Translations under genes and position numbers: made by a program
Shown here: one piece after another, positions 20,248 to 47,784 of the stretch
Layout of the letters: every line of letters begins with the position of its first letter
Numbering within the stretch: position 1 is the first letter of the stretch
NCBI GenBank assembly: GCA_021816925.1
Contig: JAKAWQ010000009.1
Location: 2,364-66,363, forward strand
Length of the DNA stretch: 64,000 nucleotides
Source: Pseudomonadota bacterium
GTDB lineage: Bacteria > Pseudomonadota > Alphaproteobacteria > Acetobacterales > Acetobacteraceae
Reading direction: 5' to 3'
The notes under the pieces: model-generated
Seen by the model: only the letters and a program-made list of their open reading frames with translations
What the model was told of the DNA's origin: nothing
The model's database searches: none

Positions 20248-21128
20248 GACCGCTCGAGCCTGGGGTCGAGTGCGTCGCGCAGCCCGTCGCCCACGAAATT
20301 GAAGCCGCTTACCGCAAGCGCGATCATCACGCCCGGGAAGATCGCAAGCCACGGCGCGGTTACGAGATATTCCTGCGCGTTGTTCAGCATGTTCCCCCAG
20401 CTCGGCGTCGGCGGCTGGATGCCGTAGCCGAGAAAGCTCACATAGGCCTCGAGCAGGATCGCGCGCGCCACGTTGAGCGTTGCCGCAACCACGATCGGCG
20501 CCACGGCGTTGGGCAGGAGCTCGCGAAAGATGATGTGGAAATCCGAGGCGCCGAGCACCTCGGCGGCCAGCGCGAAGTCGCGCTCGCGCAGGCTCTTCAT
20601 CTCCGCCTCGACCACACGCGCGACCTCCATCCAGGCGGTGGCGGCGATCACGAGCGTGATCGAGGCAAGCGTCGGCGTGATAAACGCCGCGAGCGCGAGG
20701 AGGAGAAAAATCTGCGGAAAACAGAGCACCGCATCGACGAAGCGCATCAGCGCCGCGCCCACCGAGCCGCCGAAATAGCCAGCGACCGCCCCGATGAGCG
20801 TCCCCGCCGCCGTGCTGATCAGCATGGCCGCGAACCCGATGGTCAGCGAAACCCGCCCCGCCATCAGGAGCCGCACCAGAAGATCGCGTCCAAGCTGGTC
20901 CGTGCCGAAAAGATGCGGGCCGAGGAACGGCGCGCTGAAGCGCACGCCGAGATCGATGTGCAACGGCCCGTACGGCACCAGATAAGGGCCGAGCCCGCAG
21001 GCTAGCACCAGCAGAAGAACCATCGCGAGGCCGCCGAGCGCCAGCCGATGGCGGCAGAAGCGCCTGAGCGCCCGCTGCCCAGGCCCGGTGCCCGGCGCCG
21101 CTTCGGCGATCCCCGCGGCCGCACTCAT
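20244..21128 (-). CDS. peptide ABC transporter permease (DppC-like)
   Basis: 294 aa, multi-TM, with a binding-protein-dependent permease fold. It overlaps both neighbours by 4 nt. Confidence 0.9.
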
Positions 21129-37485: not shown

Positions 37486-38271
37486 TCAAAATGCCGCCGC
37501 GGCGCGCGCCGCCGCCTCGAGCATCGCCACGTCGAATCCCTTGAGCAGCACCCGATAGCCCGCCGCTTGCTTTGCCCTCGCCGCCTCGGCCGATAGCGCC
37601 ACGCCCGCCATCACGATGCCCGCGCGCCTGATCTTCGCTTCCGCCTCGCCGACCAGCCGGCGCATCTCCGGATGGTCGAACTCGCCGGGGTGGCCGAGGC
37701 AGAGCGAGAGATCGAACGAGGCGATCGCCGCCACGTCGATCCCCGGCACCGCGAGGATCTCGTCGAGCGCCGCGATCGCCTCCGGCGTCTCGATCGTGAT
37801 GATGTTGAGGATCTCCCGATCCGCGATCCGCCAATACTCCTCCCGGCTCACGCCCCAGCGCGCGGCTGCGAACGACGGCGCATAGCCGCGCACCCCCGCC
37901 GGCGGATAACGCACGGCGGCCGTCGTGCGGCGCGCCTCCTCGGCGCTTCCGACCAGCGGGAAATTGATGCCCATCGCGCCGGCATCCAACACCGGCTTGA
38001 CGAGCCATGGCTCGTTCGCCGGCACGCGCACGAGCGGCGCCGTCCCGGTGCCCTGTGTGGCCGCGATCATCGCGTGCAGTGTTGCGAGATCGATCGCGCC
38101 ATGCTCCATGTCGAGGATCAGCGCGTCAATGCCGCTCCGCGCCAGAACCTGCACGAGTGCGGCGCTTGGCGTCGCCACCATGAAGGCGCCGATCGCGCTG
38201 CCTGCGGCAAGGTGCGCCTTCGCAGGATTGAGGAAGCCGCCGGCGATCTGCGGGGAGGATTGCTGAGACAT
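37486..38271 (-). CDS. HpcH/HpaI aldolase/citrate-lyase family protein
   Basis: The segment ...LARSGIDALILDMEHGAIDLATLHAMI...PLVRVPANEPWLVKPVLDAGAMGINFPLV...AVRYPPAGVRG... fits this family. The likely start is the ATG at 38271; the track extends to 38307. Confidence 0.85.
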   Translation of the reverse strand: MSQQSSPQIAGGFLNPAKAHLAAGSAIGAFMVATPSAALVQVLARSGIDALILDMEHGAIDLATLHAMIAATQGTGTAPLVRVPANEPWLVKPVLDAGAMGINFPLVGSAEEARRTTAAVRYPPAGVRGYAPSFAAARWGVSREEYWRIADREILNIITIETPEAIAALDEILAVPGIDVAAIASFDLSLCLGHPGEFDHPEMRRLVGEAEAKIRRAGIVMAGVALSAEAARAKQAAGYRVLLKGFDVAMLEAAARAAAAF

Positions 38272-38722
38272 GCCGCCATCCATGACCGCGTCCGCTCCGC
38301 CCGGCAAGCCGCCCCTTGTCCGCCATCTCCTCGAAACGTCGCTCTACGTCGAAGATCCCGCCCGAGCGCAGGAATTCTACCAGCGCCTGTTCGGCTTCCC
38401 GCTCGCCTTCGCCGATCAGCGCCTTTCCGCGCTTGCCCTCCCGGGCCCTGCCGTGCTGCTGCTCTTCCGCAGGGATGCATTTACAAAACCGGGCCGGACC
38501 CCGGGCGGTCTCGTTCCCGCGCACGGCGGCGCCGGCCACCTCCATCTCTGCTTCGCGATCGACGCCGCCGACCTCGCGGTGTGGCAAGAGCGGCTCACCA
38601 CGCTCGGCGTGCCCATCGAGAGCCGCGTGCATTGGCCACGGGGAAGCGAAAGCCTCTACTTCCGCGACCCCGACAACCACCTTCTCGAGCTCGCCACGCC
38701 CGGCCTCTGGCCCGACTACTGA
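38270..38722 (+). CDS. VOC (glyoxalase/bleomycin-resistance/dioxygenase) family protein
   Basis: 150 aa. The segment ...VRHLLETSLYVEDPARAQEFYQRLFGF...GHLHLCFAI...SLYFRDPDNHLLELATPGLW shows a typical VOC beta-alpha-beta pattern. Confidence 0.8.
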   Translation: MPPSMTASAPPGKPPLVRHLLETSLYVEDPARAQEFYQRLFGFPLAFADQRLSALALPGPAVLLLFRRDAFTKPGRTPGGLVPAHGGAGHLHLCFAIDAADLAVWQERLTTLGVPIESRVHWPRGSESLYFRDPDNHLLELATPGLWPDY

Positions 38723-39280: not shown

Positions 39281-39610
39281 TCATCCCGGCCTTCCGGGCC
39301 TGAGCAGCCGGTCCGCCACCAGCCACGCCGCTCCACGCTGCCACGATACATCGTCATCGCCACTGAGATCGACGCTGCCAGACGCGATCACCTGCCCGCC
39401 CGGCACCGCGCGGATCGCGATATTCACGCTCAGGATCAGGGCTGAGACCTTCTGCACGAGGCCAGTTGCAACCGCCTCGGCTCCCACCTCCCGCGCCGGC
39501 GCAACCGCGCACCCGTTGCACCCCGCAAGGTCGTTCCCGGCGATCACGCGCGCGATCGGCTGCACGCTGCTGGCGACATAGGTGCCCGAGTGCTCGAGGA
39601 GCCGCATCAC
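39281..39610 (-). CDS. hypothetical protein; possible last gene (14) of the novel operon
   Basis: 109-aa ORF with GTG/ATG starts at 39610/39607. It is in the same orientation as gene 13 and 135 nt downstream of it. No clear SD or family was found, and its frame stays open upstream without a canonical start. Confidence 0.35.
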   Translation of the reverse strand: MMRLLEHSGTYVASSVQPIARVIAGNDLAGCNGCAVAPAREVGAEAVATGLVQKVSALILSVNIAIRAVPGGQVIASGSVDLSGDDDVSWQRGAAWLVADRLLRPGRPG

Positions 39611-39744: not shown

Positions 39745-40203
39745 TTACCGGCAGCAGCCCGAGATGCCAGGCTCACAGCACCCGCAACCCATGAGCGCAC
39801 AGCAATCCGTTGCACAGCAGCAATGGCAGCCGCAACCGTATCCGTGTTCACCGCGCCAGCCTTCACCGTGCGGCAACATCTCCGCCGCGCCCCCGAGCGC
39901 GCCCGCACTGCTCGCGAGCACCGCATTGAGGAGTTCGATGCCGAGTCTCACCGTCGTGCCGAGCCCCTCGCCGATTGTGCGCACCCCGCCCGCGCTTCCG
40001 CCGGCCGCCCCACCCGGCGCGCCGAACAGCGCGAGCGAGGGAGGCACCGCCCAACCCGGCATCGCGCCCGGCATCACGCCCCCGGGCGGCATCATCACCG
40101 GCATCATCATCGGTCCCGCTGCCGCCATGCGCGCCTTGTAGCGCGCGAATTCCGCCTCCGCTGCGCTCGAAGGACGTTCCGCACCACCATCCGATCCGCT
40201 CAT
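39745..40203 (-). CDS. novel-operon gene 13: Met/Pro-rich protein with an extreme C-terminal Cys cluster
   Basis: The ATG at 40203 is preceded by GGGAGGGGCGGAG. The product is 152 aa. It has a Met-rich segment (PMMMPVMMPPGGVMPGAMPG), a Gly/Leu amphipathic segment and the tail GCGCHCCCATDCCALMGCGCCEPGISGCCR (12 Cys in 30 aa). Confidence 0.75.
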   Translation of the reverse strand: MSGSDGGAERPSSAAEAEFARYKARMAAAGPMMMPVMMPPGGVMPGAMPGWAVPPSLALFGAPGGAAGGSAGGVRTIGEGLGTTVRLGIELLNAVLASSAGALGGAAEMLPHGEGWRGEHGYGCGCHCCCATDCCALMGCGCCEPGISGCCR

Positions 40204-40219
40204 CTCCGCCCCTCCCTGC

Positions 40220-40798
40220 TCAGCAGCCGCAAATGAAAATCTCGCACCAGCGCACGCGCGCCGTCGCGTTGAGCGCCATCGCGACGAGCTTCGCTCCCGG
40301 CTTGGTCGTGATCACGCCCTCCTTTACGCGATAGGGCGTGCCCGCATTCTCCTGCCGTGCCCATAGCATCGCCGTGCCTTCGCTGTCGGTCACTTCGATC
40401 AGCACGATGAAGGGTTGCGTCGTCACCGACGCCGCGTACTCCACCGAAAGCGAGACACAGCACCCCCCGCCGATGAAGGCGGTGGCGGTCCCCAGGTTCT
40501 GCGTCTGCAGCGCCTGCGGACTCACCTCCGCGCCCGTCGGCTGCACGCGCTCGAGCATCGCCTTCGTCATCGTCGAGAGTTGCCCCACGGCCGCGCCCGG
40601 GGTGGCTCCCGCCGTGTCCCCTTGCTTCGCCGCCGGCTGCACGAGCAGCTCCTTCGCCTCGCGCCTGCACTCCCGGCAGCCGCAGCGGCAGTCCCCGCTC
40701 GGCGCGCCGCAGCGCCGGCAATGCCCCGGTGACCCGTACGTCATCGGTGCCCAGGCGCGCGTGCCCGTGTAGCGGGCCGCCTCGAACGGTCTGAACAT
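40220..40798 (-). CDS. novel-operon gene 12: Cys-rich protein, paralogue of gene 11
   Basis: The ATG at 40798 is preceded by AAGGGAGAGG. The product is 192 aa. It has an N-terminal HCRRCGAPSGDCRCGCRECRRE, a beta-rich core (...VSLSVEYAASV...) and the C-terminus ...NATARVRWCEIFICGC. Confidence 0.75.
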   Translation of the reverse strand: MFRPFEAARYTGTRAWAPMTYGSPGHCRRCGAPSGDCRCGCRECRREAKELLVQPAAKQGDTAGATPGAAVGQLSTMTKAMLERVQPTGAEVSPQALQTQNLGTATAFIGGGCCVSLSVEYAASVTTQPFIVLIEVTDSEGTAMLWARQENAGTPYRVKEGVITTKPGAKLVAMALNATARVRWCEIFICGC

Positions 40799-40817
40799 CG
40801 CAGCCTCTCCCTTTACC

Positions 40818-41219
40818 TCAGCAGCATACCCGCTCGCACCAGCGCACGCGCGCCGTCACGTTCGTCACCGCAAGCGTCACGGTCGATCCCGCCGCCACCG
40901 CACCCAGCCCCTCGTACACATGGTAGCCGGCCGCCGGGCTCGGATCGCTCCAGGTGGTCGCCGTTCCTCCGCTCGAGACAATCGTCACCGTCACCGAGGG
41001 CGTCGTGGCTCCGCTCGCCACCGAATACTCCACCGTGAGCCGGCTTTCTCCCCGGCCGCCCACCATCCCCGAGTTCGTCGGCGCCTTTGCGTCCGCGTCA
41101 ATCTCCTCCACCACCGTCTGCTCGGCCGCGCCCGGCCAGGGCAACACCGGAACCCACATCACGGGATAGCAGCCGCACGGCGGCGGGCCGCCGCATGGCC
41201 TCGGCGAATGCGCGTACAT
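40818..41219 (-). CDS. novel-operon gene 11: Cys-rich protein, paralogue of gene 12
   Basis: The ATG at 41219 is preceded by AAGGAGAGGG. The product is 133 aa. It has an N-terminal PCGGPPPCGC, a core (...SRLTVEYSVAS...) and the C-terminus ...NVTARVRWCERVCC. Confidence 0.75.
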   Translation of the reverse strand: MYAHSPRPCGGPPPCGCYPVMWVPVLPWPGAAEQTVVEEIDADAKAPTNSGMVGGRGESRLTVEYSVASGATTPSVTVTIVSSGGTATTWSDPSPAAGYHVYEGLGAVAAGSTVTLAVTNVTARVRWCERVCC

Positions 41220-41231
41220 CGTCCCTCTCCT

Positions 41232-41432
41232 TCAGCTTTGCGGCGGCTTGCCCGGCGCCGCCTCCGGTTTCGTCAAATCCCGTACGATCCCGAGCACGTC
41301 GTTCACGATTCCGAAGCCTGCGCTGACGAACCCCGTCACACTGTCCGAGATCTTCTGCGGGATCTTGTTGTCGATCAGCGCGGCGGCGGCGTCGTGCACC
41401 AGCTCACCCACCGGTCCCAGGATCCGTGCCAT
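41232..41432 (-). CDS. novel-operon gene 10: small (66 aa) amphipathic protein
   Basis: The ATG at 41432 is preceded by GAGGGAGAAGG. The product is MARILGPVGELVHDAAAALIDNKIPQKISDSVTGFVSAGFGIVNDVLGIVRDL... Confidence 0.65.
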   Translation of the reverse strand: MARILGPVGELVHDAAAALIDNKIPQKISDSVTGFVSAGFGIVNDVLGIVRDLTKPEAAPGKPPQS

Positions 41433-41447
41433 CGCCTTCTCCCTCGC

Positions 41448-42884
41448 TCACGCCCGCGCAGGCGCGGCCATCGCCGCCACTTCGCGCTCGGCGAGCCGGA
41501 GCGCCTTGCTCGCCACTTCAAAGCCCCAGCCGAGCTGCGGCATCGGGTCGCAGAGCGCCGCCCCGCCGGCCCGCGTGAAGCTTTCCGCCGCCCTCCGCGC
41601 GAGACCCCGCTCGCCCTCGTGCCAACGCAAAACCGCTTGCCACGCTCCGAGATCCTTCGGAAACGCCCGCCGGAGCGCCGCCGGCGAAACCGCCAGACGC
41701 TGCGCCAGCACGCCGCTGAACACGCCCGCCGCGAAGGCGCGGAAGCCGGCATCTCCCGCCGTCAGCCGCCCGATCCGCTCCAGCACCAGCAGGCAGAAAT
41801 CGCGGATCGCCGGGTTCTTCGCGATCGTCAGGAAAAGCTCCGCCGTCTGCCAGTCCGCACCTGTTTCACTCTCCCAGAGGCGGCGGTACAGGGCCAGCGT
41901 GCGCCGGGAAAAATCCCCCGCTGCGAACGCCGCTTCCGCCGCCCGCGCCGCATAGAAGGCGCTCTCCATCGCCTTGTGGATGCCGCCGCCGTTCAGCGGA
42001 TCCGCCTGGTTCGCGGCATCCCCCACCAGCATCACCCGCTCATCGAAGATCTTGTCCGGCCGGAAGAACGCCGAAGAGCCGCCGGCAACTGCGCCCAACC
42101 GTTCCGCCCCAGAAAGAACCTCGGCAAGCTCACGCCTCAGAAATCGCCGGAACGTGGCGCCCGGCGCTTCGGGGAGCGGGAAAGCGGGGTCGAGCGCATA
42201 GCCGAGCCCGATATTCGCGAACCCCGTCTCGTCGGCGAAGAGCCACCCGTAGCCCGGAAAATAGGAGCGGTCGAAATAGACCTTGATCGGCGCGCCCTCG
42301 CATTTCACGCCGGTGAAATAGGCGCGTACCGAAACCGCCATCACGCCCGTCTTCAGCCGGTTGCCGATCGCCCGTGACACCGCGGAGGAAACGCCGTCCG
42401 CGCCGATCACGATGCGGCCGCGAAACTCCTCGCTTTTTCCGCCGCTCCTCGCGAACACGCTCGCGTATCCCCGCTCGCGTGACACGCCGCGCACCACCGG
42501 GCCGGCCCGGAATTGCGCGCCGTTGGCAAGTGCATTGCGAAGCAGGATATGGTCGAAGCGCCGCCGGTCGAGCAGCACGGCGAAGTCCGGATAGAGCGTG
42601 CGTTGCGGAAATCCCGCGCTCAGCGTTTTTCTTCCGTTGATGTAAAGATCGCACGCCTTGATGCAGCCCTTGGTCTCGGCCAGCACTTCCTCTGCGCAGC
42701 CGAGCCGGTCGAGCCAGGCGATCGCTTGCGGCGTGAGCCCGTCCCCGCACACCTTCTCGCGCGGGAAGTCCGCCTTGTCGAGAACGAGCACGTCCATCCC
42801 ACGACCCGCAAGAAAGCTCGCGGCCGCGGCCCCGCCCGGCCCCGCACCCACCACGATCACGTCATGCAGGGCCGCCGCGTTCAT
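41448..42884 (-). CDS. novel-operon gene 9: FAD-dependent geranylgeranyl-reductase family (MenJ-like) oxidoreductase with a roughly 100-aa C-terminal extension
   Basis: 478 aa. It has an FAD motif (VIVVGAGPGGAAAASFLAGRGMDVLVLDK) followed by FPREKVCGDGLTPQA, characteristic of the GGR family, then later GDAANQADPLNGGGI. The ATG overlaps the gene 8 stop as ATGA. Confidence 0.85.
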   Translation of the reverse strand: MNAAALHDVIVVGAGPGGAAAASFLAGRGMDVLVLDKADFPREKVCGDGLTPQAIAWLDRLGCAEEVLAETKGCIKACDLYINGRKTLSAGFPQRTLYPDFAVLLDRRRFDHILLRNALANGAQFRAGPVVRGVSRERGYASVFARSGGKSEEFRGRIVIGADGVSSAVSRAIGNRLKTGVMAVSVRAYFTGVKCEGAPIKVYFDRSYFPGYGWLFADETGFANIGLGYALDPAFPLPEAPGATFRRFLRRELAEVLSGAERLGAVAGGSSAFFRPDKIFDERVMLVGDAANQADPLNGGGIHKAMESAFYAARAAEAAFAAGDFSRRTLALYRRLWESETGADWQTAELFLTIAKNPAIRDFCLLVLERIGRLTAGDAGFRAFAAGVFSGVLAQRLAVSPAALRRAFPKDLGAWQAVLRWHEGERGLARRAAESFTRAGGAALCDPMPQLGWGFEVASKALRLAEREVAAMAAPARA

Positions 42885-43549
42885 CCGCTCGCCTCCACCG
42901 AAAGGAGCACAGGAATGCGTATCGTCCCCTCGCCCAGCACCACTACGCTGCCCCGATAGAGATCGGGCGGCAGTGCGTCGGGAATCATTCCTTCCAGCAA
43001 AAATTTCTCGAAATCCATCGGCGCGATCGCGATCTCCGGCGGCGTGACGCCGAGCGCGCCCTCGGGCAAAGTCGCGCCGGTCCGCTCACCCGCGAACGCC
43101 TCGACGAGAAGGCGCACGGGCTTCGCCGCCTCGGCCGATTCGTTATTGATCGAGAATGAAATGCGCACCGCACCGCCGGGCCGGAGCGGCAGGCGGTTGG
43201 TGATGCCGTAGGAGGGCGTCGCCGCGGCCGCGCCGGGCGCCATCGCGGCCAGAGGCCCCGGAGCCGCCGCCCCAGGTGCAACGCCCGGCGCCGCCGGCGG
43301 TTCCTCCGCTTGAGGGCTCAGCATCCGCTCGATGATCTTCGTCTGCGCCGCACTGCCGATCGTGCCGAGCATGGTAAGACCGAGCGAGAGCCCCGCCTCC
43401 GCGAGATCGAGCCCGCGCGCGAGCAACTCCCCGAACCGGTCGAGCCGCGCCTTGAGGTCAAGCGTGTCCTCCGGCGGCTGCGCTGGTGCCGCCTCGGACG
43501 GCGCCGCTCCGCCGGGTGCGGCCGCGCTGCCGTTGCCCCGCTCAGCCAC
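42881..43549 (-). CDS. novel-operon gene 8: hypothetical protein (amphipathic N-region, Pro/Ala linker, beta-sandwich-like C-domain)
   Basis: 222 aa with a GTG start at 43549 that overlaps the end of gene 7 by 8 nt. The C-terminal segment ...AVRISFSINNESAEAAKPVRLLVEAF...YRGSVVVLGEGTIRIPVLLSVE looks like an Ig/CARDB-type beta-sandwich (inference). Confidence 0.6.
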   Translation of the reverse strand: MAERGNGSAAAPGGAAPSEAAPAQPPEDTLDLKARLDRFGELLARGLDLAEAGLSLGLTMLGTIGSAAQTKIIERMLSPQAEEPPAAPGVAPGAAAPGPLAAMAPGAAAATPSYGITNRLPLRPGGAVRISFSINNESAEAAKPVRLLVEAFAGERTGATLPEGALGVTPPEIAIAPMDFEKFLLEGMIPDALPPDLYRGSVVVLGEGTIRIPVLLSVEASG

Positions 43550-43778
43550 GGCACCGGCACCCGTAGCAGGGCGGCTCGCAGCGGATGCACCATTCCTCGT
43601 GCATGCACGGGCGGGCCGGACATTCCAGGCCCCACACGATTCCCTCCGCCGTCTCGCGGATCATGCGCATCTCCCGGCGCGCAAGATGCACCGCCATATG
43701 CCCGAGCCGGACCGCGAGCACCGGCAACACCCCCGCCAGAAGCGCGAGCCCATCCGTCGCCGGCGGCCGACGCCGCAT
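43542..43778 (-). CDS. novel-operon gene 7: small (78 aa) single-TM protein with a Cys-rich C-terminus
   Basis: The ATG at 43778 is preceded by GGGAGG and lies 1 nt after the gene 6 stop. It has a hydrophobic helix (LALLAGVLPVLAV) and the tail ECPARPCMHEEWCIRCEPPCYGCRCRG (7 Cys). It is hidden inside the longer track ORF 43542..44099. Confidence 0.6.
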   Translation of the reverse strand: MRRRPPATDGLALLAGVLPVLAVRLGHMAVHLARREMRMIRETAEGIVWGLECPARPCMHEEWCIRCEPPCYGCRCRG

Positions 43779-43779
43779 C

Positions 43780-44385
43780 TCAGCCTCCCGCCCGATAGGC
43801 AAAGCCGGGCGGGCCGCAGCGCAGCGCGCGCGCCGGCGCCACCGGCACCGCCCGCGCACACCCCTCCTCGAGCCGGCTCGGAATTGCCGGATTGCCGAGG
43901 GCCGCCACATCGGCAAAGCTCCTCTCGTGCGCATGCGATTCCTCGCGCCGCGCGCACTCCCGCGGCACCACCCGCGTCCGGCCCGCGATCTCCACCCGCA
44001 GCACCTCGAAGCCCAGGAGCCGCGCCCGCGCCGTGTATTGCGAAGGCAGATCGAACACCTGATGAATGCCGATCGCGACCGGAGGGATCCGCGTGACATC
44101 GATCTCCACCCCCGGCACCCGGCTCACCGAGAGATTGACCATGGGCAAGCGCGTCACGTTCAGTTGCTCGACATGCAGCGGATCGATTTCCCGCACCCGA
44201 TCGACTGAGAGCGATTCGATCAGCAGCGGCTCGATCTGGTTCAGCTCCTTCACATGCACCGCAACCGGGGCGACCTTCTCGACCGCCGCGATCGTCACCG
44301 GCGCGATGTTGTCCACTTCCTCGATCGTGACCGGATTGAGCGTGATCGGATCGACGCCCGTGACCTGTTTGATATTGACGTCCAC
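43780..44385 (-). CDS. novel-operon gene 6: protein with a periodic V/I-x-P repeat region
   Basis: The GTG at 44385 is preceded by AAGGGAG. The product is 201 aa. Residues about 8-110 form roughly 9 degenerate 11-13-residue units (VDPITLNPVTIEE / VDNIAPVTIAA / VEKVAPVAVHVKE / LNQIEPLLIES ...). Confidence 0.7.
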   Translation of the reverse strand: MDVNIKQVTGVDPITLNPVTIEEVDNIAPVTIAAVEKVAPVAVHVKELNQIEPLLIESLSVDRVREIDPLHVEQLNVTRLPMVNLSVSRVPGVEIDVTRIPPVAIGIHQVFDLPSQYTARARLLGFEVLRVEIAGRTRVVPRECARREESHAHERSFADVAALGNPAIPSRLEEGCARAVPVAPARALRCGPPGFAYRAGG

Positions 44386-44398
44386 GTCTTTTCTCCCT

Positions 44399-45094
44399 TC
44401 AGAGTCCCGGCCAGACGTAATTGAGTACGATCACCTTCGCGGTGTCCGCCACCTGCGGCATGCCCGGGATTTGCACCGTCACACTGTGCTCGGCCGTGCC
44501 GCCGCTCGGCGGCGGCCGATAGAGGAACCAGACTTCGCTGCCCCCCTGCACCGCCCCGTCCACGAGCCAGATCACGCCCGTAGCAGGGCTGTTCCTCGGA
44601 AACGCCCGGAACAGCTGCATCTTGTTCCGCTCGTCGATATACGCATTGTCGTCACCCGAGGCGTAGTAGAGCGTTCGGCTCTTCGGCCAGAGCTCGATCG
44701 TCGGCGCGGGCACGGGCAACGGTCCCACGCCGATGAGCGTCACGAACGCGAACGCCTTGCGCAGCGGATCCGCCCGCGCCGTCGCCACCACGAGATCGGT
44801 GGTGCCGCTGGCAAAGAGCCCCTTGTCCGGCGCCCGATAGAGCCCCGTCTGATCGATCGTGCCGGCCCCCGGCGATCCGTCCGGGGCGATCACCGCGAAG
44901 TTCACGCCGGTATCGGCGTTGCACACGAGAGCCCGGAAGCGGATCTCCGTGTTCGCCCGATCCGTCCAGCGCTCGTCACGGAAATAGAGCTCTGCCTCCG
45001 CCGGCCGAATCTCCACCTCCACGCGGTGCCGCCACACGCCCTCGCGGAGGATACGCCAGTCCTCCCCTCGGCCCGCGTGCACCCGATGCCTCAT
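44399..45094 (-). CDS. novel-operon gene 5: hypothetical protein with an Ig-like segment
   Basis: 231 aa. The ATG overlaps the gene 4 stop as ATGA. The segment ...VNFAVIAPDGSPGAGTIDQTGLYRAPD... resembles bacterial Ig-like (Big) domain signatures. There is no signal peptide. Confidence 0.7.
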   Translation of the reverse strand: MRHRVHAGRGEDWRILREGVWRHRVEVEIRPAEAELYFRDERWTDRANTEIRFRALVCNADTGVNFAVIAPDGSPGAGTIDQTGLYRAPDKGLFASGTTDLVVATARADPLRKAFAFVTLIGVGPLPVPAPTIELWPKSRTLYYASGDDNAYIDERNKMQLFRAFPRNSPATGVIWLVDGAVQGGSEVWFLYRPPPSGGTAEHSVTVQIPGMPQVADTAKVIVLNYVWPGL

Positions 45095-45492
45095 TCCTCG
45101 AACGCCCCCTCGACCGCGGCCTTGAGCAGCCGGCCCGGCACCTCGCCCGTGAGATCGACCTCAACCGTCCCCCGCGCGCTCCCTTCCAGCGCGCATCCGC
45201 CCTCGCCGTCGCCGATCCTGCCCTCCACCCCGACACCGTGGGCGCGGATCGTTGCATTGGCCGGCTTGATATGAATGCGGAACGGACCCACCGATCCCGC
45301 CGCCACGCCCCGCGAGGGTGACAGAAACGGAATCCGCATCAGCAAAGGAATCGCCGCCACCTCGGCCTGAATCGTTCCTGTTGCGATTTCAAGCGCACCC
45401 TCCCCGTTCAGCGCGAAGGAAAGCGGCGCCATCTGCGTGCGCAGCCGGAACTCCGGCGCGCCGGCAAGCGTCACGTGCGCGGCGAATTTCAT
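45091..45492 (-). CDS. novel-operon gene 4: hypothetical protein
   Basis: 133 aa. The ATG overlaps the gene 3 stop as ATGA. I recognise no family. Confidence 0.65.
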   Translation of the reverse strand: MKFAAHVTLAGAPEFRLRTQMAPLSFALNGEGALEIATGTIQAEVAAIPLLMRIPFLSPSRGVAAGSVGPFRIHIKPANATIRAHGVGVEGRIGDGEGGCALEGSARGTVEVDLTGEVPGRLLKAAVEGAFEE

Positions 45493-45683
45493 GGCGCCTT
45501 CTCCTGCGCCTCTTCTCCTCCCTCCGGATAGACGCGCCGCGCGAGGTCGGTGAACATCGCATCCACCGTCTGGTTCAACCGTTCGAACCCGTCCAGCGCC
45601 TTGGCGATCTCCTCGCAGTTCTGCCCCTGCACCTCGAAGTGCACCATCGGCCCGAGGCGGATCGAAAGATTGATGCGCGCCAT
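45489..45683 (-). CDS. novel-operon gene 3: small (64 aa) hypothetical protein
   Basis: The ATG at 45683 is preceded by GGGGAGA. The product is MARINLSIRLGPMVHFEVQGQNCEEIAKALDGFERLNQTVDAMFTDLARRVYP... It is hidden in the longer track ORF 45489..46025. Confidence 0.6.
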   Translation of the reverse strand: MARINLSIRLGPMVHFEVQGQNCEEIAKALDGFERLNQTVDAMFTDLARRVYPEGGEEAQEKAP

Positions 45684-45700
45684 TGTCCCCGTCTCCCCGC

Positions 45701-46291
45701 TCAGCCGTTGCGCCGCCCGCGCCCGGTCTTCACCTGCTGCTCGGCCTCGCGCACCCGCCCGATCAGCAGTTCGAGCGAGGTCAGCACGGTGTCCAGCACC
45801 TCCCGCTCGCGCTGCCCGAGCGCCCGATAGAAGCGCGCCAGCTCCGCCCCGATCTTCCGCCCCTCCTCCGTCTTCCGGTAATCCTTGCCCCGCTCCTGCA
45901 AGACGCTCCCGAACTGATCCAGAACCGAAACCAGCCCGAACAGGAGGTCCGGCCCGGCCTTCGCCTCCGACTTCACCTCCTCGTCCCTCGCCTGGCTCTC
46001 CGGCATCGGCCTGCACCGCCTGCATCTCTTGATCCCGTCCTCAGGCCCGATCCGCCAGAGCCCGTAGGAGGCGGAGCACGCATCCTCGGGAATGGCCCTG
46101 CAGCCGCGCCGGTGCACCACGCCGCGCACGGCATCGAACCGGTAGGGCGCCGCCTCGGTCTCCTCGCGGTTGTCGATCCGAAGGAGCGTGTTCCATTCGC
46201 CGCGCCCCCGTTCCCGATAGAGCGCCTGGATGGCGATCGCCGCCTGCTCGACGAGCGGCCGCCCGCCTTCCCCGCTCATTCCCCACTGCAT
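45701..46291 (-). CDS. novel-operon gene 2: hypothetical protein with a 4-Cys (zinc-ribbon-like) motif and a helical C-terminal half
   Basis: 196 aa. The ATG directly abuts the gene 1 stop (TGAATG). It has CRAIPEDAC...24 aa...CRRC, then a charged helical region (...KDYRKTEEGRKIGAELARFYRALGQREREVLD...). Confidence 0.65.
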   Translation of the reverse strand: MQWGMSGEGGRPLVEQAAIAIQALYRERGRGEWNTLLRIDNREETEAAPYRFDAVRGVVHRRGCRAIPEDACSASYGLWRIGPEDGIKRCRRCRPMPESQARDEEVKSEAKAGPDLLFGLVSVLDQFGSVLQERGKDYRKTEEGRKIGAELARFYRALGQREREVLDTVLTSLELLIGRVREAEQQVKTGRGRRNG

Positions 46292-47212
46292 TCATTCATA
46301 GACATCCCACGCCCCACCGTCCTGCCGCTGCCGGCGATGCTTCTCCAGCCGGGTCGCGTAGTAGCGCCCGAGGAAGCCGAGCAAGAGCGAGCGCCCCGGC
46401 CCCGGCTCGAGACTCGCCTCGATCCGCCGGCGATGCCTCGCGTAGATACGACCGAGTGCGCGCTCCGGAGCATTGAGCCGGTTCATGTATGTCACCCGCC
46501 CCTCCTTGCGGTCGGCGTGGCAGTCGCCGTGATCGTCGATGAACATGATCAGGGCGCCCGCGCTGAAGAGCCCCGCAAGATACGAAAGGGCAACATTTTG
46601 CACAAGGAATATCGCCAGCACCAGGATCGCGTGTCCGCTCCGGTTGCGTGCCGAGCGGCGAAGCACCGCAAGTTCCCGCGCCCGCGTGAGACCCGTCACC
46701 CGCGCCGGCTCGAGCCGCAGCATCACGTCCTCCGCCTGCGCCGCGTGCAGGTGAACGATCGCCTGGCGAAGCAGCGGCGCGAGCACGTCGCGCTCGATGA
46801 ACATGGAGGCCACGATCACGTAGAACAGCCGCTCGCGCGCGTTTCGGATCTCGAACCAGCCGGTTGCCAGCAGCCGCTCGAACCGCGCGAGATACTCGCG
46901 CGCCGCGCTCTCGCCGAAGTCGTCGAGGAAGCTGTCCGCCAGGAAGCAGCAGCAGCCGAACAGGATGGCAAGCCGCCGCCGGCCGGCATCGAAGGTTTCA
47001 CCCGCAATCTCCGTGCAGGCGTGCCCGACCAGCGCCATCTTCGCGCTGAGTTCCAGCATCTTGCGGTATTCCGGCCCGTTCGCGGCCGCCAGTGCCGGGT
47101 AATAGGCCCCGACCAGCGGCGCGAGAACTTCCTTCACCTCGCCGCGATAGCGCCGCGAGAGTTCTTCGAGGCGAGCCGCGTCGGCCCCTTCGCCCGCCGC
47201 CAACCCGGCCAT
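46292..47212 (-). CDS. novel-operon gene 1: helical protein with two Asp-rich motifs (isoprenoid-synthase-like; inference)
   Basis: The likely start is the ATG at 47212, with GGAG 5 nt upstream; the track extends to 47374. The product is 306 aa. It has DSFLDD at residues 93-98 (46919-46936) and DDHGDCHAD at residues 226-234 (46511-46537), about 133 residues apart. Confidence 0.65.
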   Translation of the reverse strand: MAGLAAGEGADAARLEELSRRYRGEVKEVLAPLVGAYYPALAAANGPEYRKMLELSAKMALVGHACTEIAGETFDAGRRRLAILFGCCCFLADSFLDDFGESAAREYLARFERLLATGWFEIRNARERLFYVIVASMFIERDVLAPLLRQAIVHLHAAQAEDVMLRLEPARVTGLTRARELAVLRRSARNRSGHAILVLAIFLVQNVALSYLAGLFSAGALIMFIDDHGDCHADRKEGRVTYMNRLNAPERALGRIYARHRRRIEASLEPGPGRSLLLGFLGRYYATRLEKHRRQRQDGGAWDVYE

Positions 47213-47784
47213 AGCCACTCCGTTCCCCCCGTCCGCTGCTTGCGAGGAGCGAACGCCTCTCTCCCGCGCCGCCACGCCGGCACCGAAACAGAAATTGAGC
47301 TTACGACCGCGCAACCATCGCATGCAACGGAAACCCGCGCTTGCCCGGCAAACCGCCTCCCCCCGGGCGGCCACGCTGCTGGCATGCCCGCTCCGCCGGC
47401 AGATCGAGCGAACGCCGGAGTGCCGTCGCCGCGCTCACCATACCCATGAAATGATGCGTGAAATCATCCGGCCCGTAGCCGCCGAAATCGCCGGGCAGGT
47501 CGGCAAGCCGTGTCTCCGGGCCCGCCAGCCCGCCTGGTGCAGCACGCGACCGCGACCGCACCAGTTACCTTAGCCGACGCAGCGGGCTTCGAGTTACAAG
47601 GGTCTCGCGCGTGCTCTGGTCCCATCGCTGACGCGCGGTGGGACCCTGCGGCTGGTGGCCGGCCACGCGCAAGATCAACGAGAACACCAGCGGCCTCACC
47701 CTCGTTCGAAGAGGCAGGAATTGAAGCCGCGGGTGTGACGCGTCTCACACCGCTCAGCCGCAAGCCCCGCTATTCTCGCGTCCC

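Follow-up and report, generated by a model that had tools for sequence, protein, structure and literature searches.

A Cys-rich protein tail in a 13-gene bacterial island encoding two isoprenoid-type enzymes

In a 64,000-nucleotide stretch of contig JAKAWQ010000009.1 from an Acetobacteraceae bacterium (below, the window), a gene designated M was found to encode a 152-amino acid protein with 12 Cys in its last 30 residues (GCGCHCCCATDCCALMGCGCCEPGISGCCR). M is the last gene of a widespread 13-gene island (genes A to M), in which two isoprenoid-type enzymes, A and I, are paired with four proteins that have conserved C-terminal Cys motifs (G, K, L and M). The island, with the tail as part of it, is rated as new; the rating rests on 12 of the 13 families being unannotated in the searched databases and on the silence of the literature about the gene combination. 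The reading that we favor, tentatively and as a possibility short of probable, is that A attaches isoprenoids to the tails through thioether bonds, with the Cys thiols as acceptors, and that I then saturates the attached chains.

Results

The Cys-rich tail of M is coding and conserved

A first-pass annotation, made from the sequence alone, had drawn attention to the 40% Cys content of the tail and to its CxC, CC and CCC runs, and had called this content far above the usual. Translation bore out both the count and the arrangement, with CCEPGISGCCR at the end and the stop codon at 39745–39747. For comparison, six-frame open reading frames (ORFs) of at least 60 amino acids were surveyed across the window for the maximum number of Cys in a 30-residue stretch. 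M ranked top among 375 ORFs, and the runner-up, with 7 Cys, was gene G of the same operon. Given a background Cys frequency of 1.4–2.1%, the binomial tail for the cluster in M is ~4e-15 to 5e-13 (p ~1e-13), and a chance origin of the cluster is excluded. By eye, with no repeat finder run, the tail DNA did not have the look of a simple repeat. The absence of a signal peptide, also part of the earlier annotation, agreed with inspection of the M N terminus, in which no hydrophobic segment of that kind was visible.

Because the window is GC-rich (~68% G+C) and holds many spurious ORFs, including long ones that overlap M on both strands, the coding status of M needed to be tested. The M ATG lies 16 nt past the stop of the preceding operon gene and is preceded by a strong GA-rich ribosome-binding site, GGGAGGGG. 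A protein search with M gave nine homologues (39–69% identity), all of which have the tail; that the first search of this kind returned only ten homologues is explained by the fast divergence of M and by the dependence of the tool on shared words. A scan of the genome collection with narrow M patterns returned only two loci. By synteny, M is present wherever the island end is covered, and 21 orthologues taken from syntenic loci (numbered with the prefix L) carry between 7 and 14 Cys in their last 30 residues. Orthologues spanning 27–77% identity retain the frame, the modules and the Cys positions. Over the last 36 codons, M and its orthologue in L002, an Acetobacteraceae metagenome-assembled genome (MAG), differ by 10 synonymous and 11 non-synonymous changes; of the 12 Cys of the window protein, L002 lacks only one CC pair, which it has as GS. 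The M ORF is a real coding gene, and its tail is conserved in the orthologues, as the earlier annotation had predicted.

Proteins of the M family begin with a helix, AQAEFxxYKxR (AEAEFARYKAR in the window), which is followed by a Pro-rich segment (Met/Pro-rich in the window) with a near-invariant Trp in the motif PxWxxPP (PGWAVPP in the window). Next comes a conserved amphipathic Gly/Ala/Leu helix, LGxTxRLG[IV][DE]LLNAxL...LGG, and then a His/Gly linker and the Cys string; overall length ranges from 142 to 186 amino acids. C134, C135, C140, C142, C143, P145, G146 and C150 are invariant in M and the nine homologues. Across the 21 orthologues, the last 35 residues have the terminal motif CC-x-P-[GS]-V-x-x-C-C in common, with an upstream D-C-C and a C-G-C as further conserved elements and a middle of variable length; some orthologues have (CG)n extensions, in which the number of CG units differs (L037, L019). 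Cys makes up 34% of these 35 residues and Gly 20%; Ser, Glu, Pro, Asp and His come next. They are net negative and almost devoid of hydrophobic or basic residues (Phe, Leu, Ile and Trp each <3%). The final residue is Cys in 16 of the 21 orthologues, and Cys occurs within the last two residues in 20.

The Met/Pro-rich stretch of the window protein, PMMMPVMMPPGGVMPGAMPG, is kept in close relatives, kept in part in others (MAMPVMPGWAMPPSM) and absent from M orthologues of the L001/L007/L039 type; it is reminiscent of the Met motifs for Cu(I) binding in proteins such as Ctr1 or CopA. M had no Pfam or NCBIfam match at E ≤0.1, and 22 family members had no Pfam match at E ≤10. Weak PDB-sequence matches of the tail to snake phospholipase A2 were set aside as compositional. 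Profile comparison with hhalign placed an M-like helix in G (G–M, 54%) and H (H–M, 45%); a similar helix was seen by eye only in J and B, the J–M profile probability being 1.8%.

Island organization and spread

Genes A to M form a tightly packed minus-strand operon at 39745–47212. Complete islands were found in L002, in a distant ENA contig (L001), in Caulobacter sp. LARHSG274 (L007) and on the long contigs L008 and L089–L091. The 13-gene order is identical in all complete loci, and the same order was seen in every metagenome locus long enough for the whole island. Homologues form at least 348 clusters at 90% identity for gene A and at least 324 for gene L. The carriers are hundreds of soil, peat, sediment and acid-mine bacteria, and the named hosts include Acetobacteraceae, Rhodospirillales, Rhizomicrobium, Caulobacter and a Geothrix (Acidobacteriota) MAG. 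The sequences on either side of the island show no relation from one locus to the next and sometimes contain integrases or insertion sequence (IS) elements: within 10 kb of the island, one genome has a tRNA gene and an integrase of phage type, another an IS110 transposase, and another a DDE transposase and an integrase. The island therefore looks self-contained and mobile, and its flanks suggest horizontal mobility.

Gene I alone among the 13 matches Pfam or NCBIfam; in these searches no transporter, protease, ATPase, regulator or metal-handling family was matched by any island protein. No match was found in PHROGs or PADLOC, which were searched for phage-derived and anti-phage proteins, and when the window and four loci were scanned with Rfam, neither a riboswitch nor any other RNA turned up near the island. 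Pfam scans of the individual members of the M, E and F families, run with lax thresholds, returned only noise, PDB-sequence profile searches with A, E, F, H, D and M returned nothing significant, and the plasmid collection contained no copy of gene A. Encapsulin, gas-vesicle, microcompartment and R-body systems were considered and rejected, as no shell-protein family was matched. Literature searches, aimed at the gene combination or at bacterial Cys prenylation, turned up nothing about the island.

Isoprenoid-type enzymes A and I

An AlphaFold2 model of A, computed from a 61-sequence alignment, is all-helical (pLDDT 91.7, pTM 0.90). When the model was compared with the PDB using Foldseek, all of the top 50 matches were trans-prenyl-diphosphate synthases (CrtE, FPPS, OPPS, DPPS) or class I terpene synthases, with a probability of 1.0 (0.99 for one match). 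The best fold match was the pimarane-type diterpene synthase Sat1646, at a TM score of 0.63–0.65 and 12–17% identity. Two Asp-rich motifs were identified in the 61 sequences. The first, a DDxxD variant, has an invariant D93-S-F-x-D97 and D98 in at least 90% of sequences; the second, D226-D227-H-G-D230...D234 (DDxxD), is invariant. In the model the two motifs, separated by ~130 residues, are found where long helices end, which is where the first and second Asp-rich motifs (FARM and SARM), or DDxxD and NSE, sit in this fold. The residues leading into the second motif have the consensus L-I-M-x-I-D-D, with no Gln. On the basis of the model, A is assigned to the class I terpenoid-synthase/trans-prenyl-diphosphate-synthase fold.

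At the sequence level, A had no Pfam, NCBIfam or PDB-sequence match, profiles included, and was not placed in the polyprenyl synthase or ComQ families. A hidden Markov model search with the A profile over 1.84 billion representatives returned only the A family and fragments, with no bridge to known synthases; the weakest match, P0176, had only a sub-threshold polyprenyl_synt score.

Gene I scored 197.2 bits against TIGR02032, the geranylgeranyl-reductase (GGR) family model, for which the curated cutoff is 158.8, and Pfam FAD_binding_3 was also matched. Its best PDB sequence match was 3oz2, a digeranylgeranylglycerophospholipid (DGGGPL) reductase. Active GGRs are marked by an active-site Cys behind the flavin, by YxWxFP-x7-8-GxG and by GGG (PMC6309074). 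Among 24 island copies of I, the active-site Cys was found in 20, N-G-G-G in 20 and Y-x-W-x-F...G-x-G in all 24, the Pro being replaced by Val, Ile, Ala or Phe. From its score and these motifs I is identified as a GGR-family member, for which reduction of prenyl C=C bonds is predicted. Scores were far below the equivalog cutoffs of MenJ, BchP/ChlP and DGGGPL reductase. I is equally similar in sequence to flavin halogenases; identity as a halogenase was rejected, since the GGR motifs are retained and no WxWxIP was found by inspection.

Some islands contain a tandem double GGR-family gene (L001:5832-8745; L034; L039; L089:14695-17704). The four I copies that deviate from the GGR motifs appear to be a second paralogue, to judge from their matching deviations: in these presumed second copies the active-site Cys is shifted (R-C) and RGG takes the place of GGG. 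The presence of two copies hints at two different reduction steps or substrates.

Cys tails of G, K and L

The tail of G has the motif ...C-[CY]-E-P-P-[CI]-Y-G-C..., that of K ...AR[LV]RWCExVCC and that of L ...ARVRWCExFSC; island tail peptides include ...DCCALMGCGCCEPGISGCCR and ...ARVRWCEVFSC. K and L are paralogues (hhalign probability 99.6%) in which R-W-C-E is invariant, with a further Cys six residues past the Trp. The terminal residue of L is Cys in 120 of the 120 homologues listed, variation being confined to an added C or GC, and that of K is Cys in 20 of 22 orthologues. At the other end, 117 of the 120 listed L homologues have C-x2-C-x6-C-x-C-x-C-x2-C, followed by RKEAKEL, and L also has GGGCC where its beta-sandwich begins.

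The AlphaFold model of L (mean pLDDT 75.6, ~90 for residues 102–187) is an eight-stranded jelly-roll, the last strand of which is RVRWCEI; the final five residues are of low confidence. Since RWCE lies in this confidently modeled strand, the Trp is presumably part of the fold, and the low confidence of the terminal residues suggests that the terminal Cys is probably flexible and accessible. Foldseek with L returned generic jelly-rolls only (carbohydrate-binding modules, Cry toxin domain III, phage tail-needle knobs, C1q/TNF-like heads and nucleoplasmin), and no cupredoxin, metallochaperone or lipid-binding (RhoGDI/PDE-delta) fold was among them.

In one lineage, represented by L074 (12792-13076) and L080 (10731-11015), the gene at the G position encodes a 94-amino acid protein with an M-like tail, ...CGCGGCGCAHCCIIECRPAVYRCSCCCC. 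K of the same two loci is without the terminal CC (...RWCERMKY), as is K of L063 (...RWCERIEY). From these sequences, Cys tails seem to have been traded between island proteins.

Remaining island genes and surrounding sequence

Coordinates of the island features are collected in Table 1. F contains about eight consecutive 11-residue repeats with a Pro in each (VAPVAVHVKEL / NQIEPLLIESL / REIDPLHVEQL), followed by a conserved PRDCARRE...HERSF...GNPAIPSR; its sole weak likeness is to leucine-rich repeats. The conserved N-terminal domain of B has H-x3-C...C-x2-C (HRRGCRAIP...CRRCRP), which by its sequence may be a small Zn site; an acidic linker that varies comes next, and then a C-terminal half that is conserved, helical and includes an M-like LFGLVSVLDQFG helix.

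Table 1. Features of the island, with window coordinates unless a locus is named
Feature	Position	Strand	Description
Gene M, 152 aa	39745..40203	-	No Pfam or NCBIfam match
Cys-string tail of M	39748..39837	-	12 Cys; tail kept in orthologues
Conserved helix of M, ~residues 79-106	39886..39969	-	GLGTTVRLGIELLNAVLASSAGALGG; from alignments and hhalign
Met/Pro-rich stretch of M, residues 31-50	40054..40113	-	PMMMPVMMPPGGVMPGAMPG; from alignments; lineage-specific
Gene L, 192 aa	40220..40798	-	N-terminal Cys cluster, jelly-roll beta-sandwich, tail RVRWCEIFICGC
Gene K, 133 aa	40818..41219	-	Short Cys-containing N terminus, jelly-roll domain, tail ARVRWCERVCC
Gene J, 66 aa	41232..41432	-	Small helical; Gly/Phe/Val-rich helix, Pro-rich end
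Gene I, 478 aa	41448..42884	-	FAD-dependent geranylgeranyl-reductase family; TIGR02032, FAD_binding_3
Gene H, 222 aa	42881..43549	-	Disordered N terminus, M-like helix, Pro/Ala linker, beta-rich C-terminal domain
Gene G, 78 aa	43542..43778	-	Helix, then Cys tail ...CMHEEWCIRCEPPCYGCRCRG; resembles C-terminal half of M
Gene F, 201 aa	43780..44385	-	~11-residue Pro-containing repeats
Gene E, 231 aa	44399..45094	-	Conserved; probably beta-rich from its sequence; no family match
Gene D, 133 aa	45091..45492	-	No family match
Gene C, 64 aa	45489..45683	-	No family match
Gene B, 196 aa	45701..46291	-	N-terminal domain with C...CxxC; helical C-terminal half
Gene A, 306 aa from conserved start	46292..47212	-	Class I terpenoid-synthase/trans-prenyl-diphosphate-synthase fold (AlphaFold2 model)
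Mobile-element flanks	L008:3308-5058; L001:1-530; L089:2634-3083 and 20468-20933

Upstream regions of A from 66 loci were compared by eye, and no regulator box common across lineages was seen. In close relatives (window 47213-47330; L005, L009, L010) the pattern TTTC(C/G)GTTGC-N10-12-GGTTGCGC-N4-CGTAAG precedes A and is possibly a promoter; this GTTGC...CGTAAG pattern was not conserved in distant islands and matched no known regulator. Downstream of the island in the window are a DUF3280 fragment (39281-39610, -), a glyoxalase-family gene (38270-38722, +) and, farther on, an HpcH/HpaI aldolase gene (37486-38307, -). The same downstream neighbors are found in L002, which marks them as local synteny and not as part of the island elsewhere.

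Discussion

Possible lipidation of the tails and competing explanations

The favored reading, isoprenoid lipidation of the C-terminal thiols, was preferred for several reasons. A and I are the only two enzyme-like genes of the island, and both point to isoprenoid chemistry; A, I and the genes for Cys-tailed proteins are found together, in an unchanged order, in every complete locus; and the searches of the island gave none of the proteases, transporters, metal-handling genes or riboswitches that would point to a different logic. The association of A and I with isoprenoid chemistry is plain, and their substrates are predictions. In addition, bacterial enzymes of the same fold class as A (ComQ, PalQ and ChrPC) prenylate ribosomal peptides (PMC13290415). 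In K, L and M the C terminus does not extend freely past the Cys, which suggests that the terminus itself is recognized; PalQ, a peptide prenyltransferase related to isoprenyl diphosphate synthases of the trans type (trans-IDS-like), needs its acceptor at the peptide terminus (PMC13290415), and terminus recognition has been reported for the XXCC/CXC ends of Rab proteins. The model of L was counted on this side as well, with the Trp of RWCE presumably part of the fold and the terminal Cys in a probably flexible, accessible end.

In the proposed mechanism, A would ionize a cellular prenyl diphosphate, farnesyl or geranylgeranyl diphosphate (FPP or GGPP), by means of its two Asp-rich Mg/diphosphate motifs, and would move the prenyl group onto accessible C-terminal thiols of G, K, L and M, the putative acceptors, to form thioether isoprenoid anchors. 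The many Cys of M could allow multiple lipidation; multiply lipidated cysteine strings exist in eukaryotic cysteine-string proteins. The GGR-family enzyme I would then saturate the chains, its predicted substrate being protein-bound. The lipidated proteins may assemble with the non-enzymatic island proteins on a membrane or lipid surface, an assembly to which K and L would contribute jelly-rolls and G, H and M (with B and J, by eye) amphipathic Gly/Ala/Leu helices. The scheme taken whole, that is, endogenous bacterial protein S-isoprenylation in which A prenylates C-terminal Cys including the M string, I saturates the chains and a mobile island thereby yields a membrane- or lipid-associated assembly of a kind not seen before, is considered less likely than not. 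The suggestion of S-lipidation in the earlier annotation, made from the ...GCCR ending, gains contextual support from the two isoprenoid-type enzymes and the three further Cys-tailed proteins of the operon, on which that annotation had not drawn.

Several points weigh against lipidation by A. Transfer of prenyl groups by A to protein thiols is a prediction; all characterized trans-IDS-like peptide prenyltransferases act on Trp (PMC13290415), and no bacterial enzyme of this fold is known to prenylate Cys. In A, the second Asp-rich motif is not preceded by the Gln characteristic of those enzymes. A has no detectable sequence relation to a characterized family, and it could equally be a terpene synthase or a chain-elongating enzyme with a free lipid as its product. 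Many lipidated tails are basic or hydrophobic, whereas that of M is acidic, with much Gly, Ser and His. Twelve Cys far exceed what an anchor needs, the conserved internal Cys (CGC, DCC) and the (CG)n expansions suit metal binding at least equally well, and seven further island proteins are left without an explained role.

Metal binding is the strongest competitor, rated only slightly below lipidation and, like it, less likely than not. The tail would be a metal-thiolate module, metallothionein-like or like the His/Cys tails of other proteins, in which the thiols of CxC and CC, aided by nearby His, Asp and Glu, coordinate Zn, Cu(I), Cd or an Fe-S-type cluster. It could act as a structural or redox center or as a metal store in the assembly, possibly passing electrons to the flavoprotein I; the isoprenoid that A and I produce would then stand apart as a product of its own. 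The composition of the M tail, its net acidity and its usual position after a His/Gly-rich linker are all consistent with this, as are the conservation of the internal Cys of M and the variable number of CG units, which would be expected of a capacity function. Cys clusters occur also at the N termini of L and K, in the GGGCC of L and in the C...CxxC of B, so that several metal sites in a complex are plausible. The dedicated ferredoxin that an archaeal GGR is reported to need (in a work cited by PMC6309074) was counted on the same side, together with the Cu(I)-like Met-rich stretch of the window protein; that stretch, however, is not conserved across the M family. No metallothionein, ferredoxin or other metal-binding family model matched the island proteins, and no metal transporter, chaperone, regulator or metal riboswitch was found in or near the island, whose flanks differ. 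Metal binding also leaves unexplained the strict linkage of A and I to the Cys-tailed genes and the ending of L exactly at Cys in the listed homologues. The likeness to metallothioneins drawn in the earlier annotation thus stands for composition and motifs and fails for family models and metal-gene context, and its mention of Fe-S or persulfide chemistry found no supporting context. By analogy, metal binding and lipidation may coexist, as in the plant HIPP proteins (PMC11004388).

It was also considered, as a distinctly less probable explanation, that the tails are disulfide cross-linkers whose intermolecular bonds lock a self-assembling layer of K/L, F, E and D after assembly or on exposure to oxidant. 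Some M orthologues contain CCEPSCCEP[SD]CC, which resembles the CCxP repeats that keratin-associated proteins have. Apart from A and I, the island genes (11 of 13) are non-enzymatic and structural-looking, the jelly-roll of L is of a kind found in trimeric fiber tips and C1q/TNF-like heads, and the number of Cys differs between M orthologues. Against cross-linking, the island has neither signal peptides nor secretion genes, so that its proteins are synthesized in the cytoplasm, a reducing environment. Of the known types of thiol oxidase none was found, I has GGR and not disulfide-oxidoreductase motifs, no Pfam keratin or spore-coat family was matched, and the scheme makes no use of A and I. 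The earlier dismissal of structural disulfides was reasonable, if provisional.

Other post-translational chemistry is very unlikely. M might be a large precursor of the RiPP type (peptides made on ribosomes and modified after translation) with a tailored Cys-rich core, or K and L might carry a Trp/Cys cofactor or cross-link; in the latter variant, I would be a QhpG/LodB-like Trp hydroxylase acting on K/L (W-x5-C), with M as an accessory thiol donor. I does match the QhpG (1e-30), LodB and GoxB maturase models, below their cutoffs; the invariant R-W-C-E of K and L with its more distant Cys would offer a suitable site; and the known trans-IDS-like peptide prenyltransferases are all Trp-directed. 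I nevertheless scores far higher for the GGR family and retains the GGR motifs, and M tails are without Trp. Both Trp prenylation and Trp-quinone formation at RWCE were rejected, because that Trp lies inside a confident beta-strand of the jelly-roll in the L model. No protease, exporter, radical SAM, YcaO or lanthipeptide-type enzyme was found in the island, and M, with its length and its conserved N-terminal modules, is unlike a leader peptide and does not qualify as a RiPP precursor.

Finally, that M is an artefact, a chance ORF or wrong frame with Cys codons supplied by GC-rich composition, is scarcely conceivable: the G+C content and overlapping spurious ORFs of the window would allow it, but it is ruled out by orthologues that retain frame, modules and Cys, with synonymous changes in the tail, and is opposed by the ribosome-binding site, the tight operon packing and the binomial probability.

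Relation to known systems

In its features the M tail recalls metallothioneins, cysteine strings and Rab-type ends, and it belongs to none of these groups. With Rab CC/CXC ends (geranylgeranyltransferase II and Rab escort protein, REP) and CaaX proteins, the island has in common Cys at or next to the C terminus of several substrate-like proteins, a proposed thioether isoprenoid anchor and the cellular FPP/GGPP pool. The resemblance to Rab-type ends noted in the earlier annotation does not extend to the machinery. The island has no CaaX box, its tails being CC-x-P-G-V-x-x-CC, RWCExVCC and RWCExFSC; no alpha-alpha-barrel Zn prenyltransferase was found among its proteins by way of the prenyltransferase repeat families; and there is no Pfam match to a GTPase or to REP or guanine nucleotide dissociation inhibitor (GDI). 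The island differs further in its candidate transferase, which is of the class I isoprenoid-synthase fold, in encoding a GGR-type reductase alongside, in its bacterial host and in the ~12 Cys of M as against two in Rab ends.

ComQ (with ComX), PalQ and ChrPC are like A in being bacterial and in having the isoprenoid-synthase fold with FARM and SARM. They prenylate ribosomal peptides encoded nearby, whereas the putative acceptors of A are whole proteins ending in Cys. They are also Trp-directed, with a Gln before SARM for Trp recognition (PMC13290415), where A has Phe-Ile; A has no similarity in sequence to ComQ or to the polyprenyl synthases. I, for its part, is like the geranylgeranyl reductases (DGGGPL reductase, BchP/ChlP, MenJ) in exceeding the TIGR02032 cutoff and in its FAD motif, Cys, YxWxF...GxG and GGG. 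It differs in falling below the equivalog cutoffs, in the replaced Pro of YxWxFP, in a substrate that may be protein-bound and in the second, divergent copy present in some islands.

Metallothioneins and Cys/His metal tails (SmtA/BmtA, MymT, SlyD, HspA) resemble the M tail in having ~35–40% Cys, CxC and CC motifs, Gly/Ser/Asp/Glu/His, few hydrophobic residues and a cytoplasmic location. M differs from them in having no family-model match, in bearing its tail on a conserved protein of 120 residues, in the absence of a metal-homeostasis context and in its strict linkage to isoprenoid enzymes. In cysteine-string protein, more than 11 Cys form a string whose multiple S-lipidation anchors the protein to vesicles; multiple lipidation is proposed for the M tail too. 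In HIPPs, thiols for metal binding occur together with an isoprenyl anchor at the C terminus (PMC11004388). These examples show that metal binding and lipidation can exist side by side. Both kinds of protein are eukaryotic, with an unrelated J or HMA domain and with DHHC acyltransferases or CaaX prenyltransferases, none of which is found in the island. The high-sulfur keratin-associated proteins and the spore-coat/exosporium proteins (CotY/ExsY) are comparable through the CCxP-type repeats of some M orthologues and the structural-looking partners; M has no family match to them and neither an oxidizing compartment nor a known thiol oxidase, and the isoprenoid enzymes have no counterpart in those systems.

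Significance

The tail may yet prove to bind metal, a familiar chemistry that would then occur in a new context. Were metal binding or cross-linking true in place of lipidation, the island would still represent about a dozen new protein families and a multiprotein assembly with an isoprenoid product. Protein S-prenylation is treated as a eukaryotic trait, and in bacteria the residues that peptide prenyltransferases are known to modify, in small natural products, are Trp, Tyr, Ser/Thr, Arg or His (PMC13290415). The island makes isoprenoid lipidation of a bacterium's own proteins directly testable, and since at least one carrier is deposited under a strain name, Caulobacter sp. LARHSG274, genetics may be feasible.

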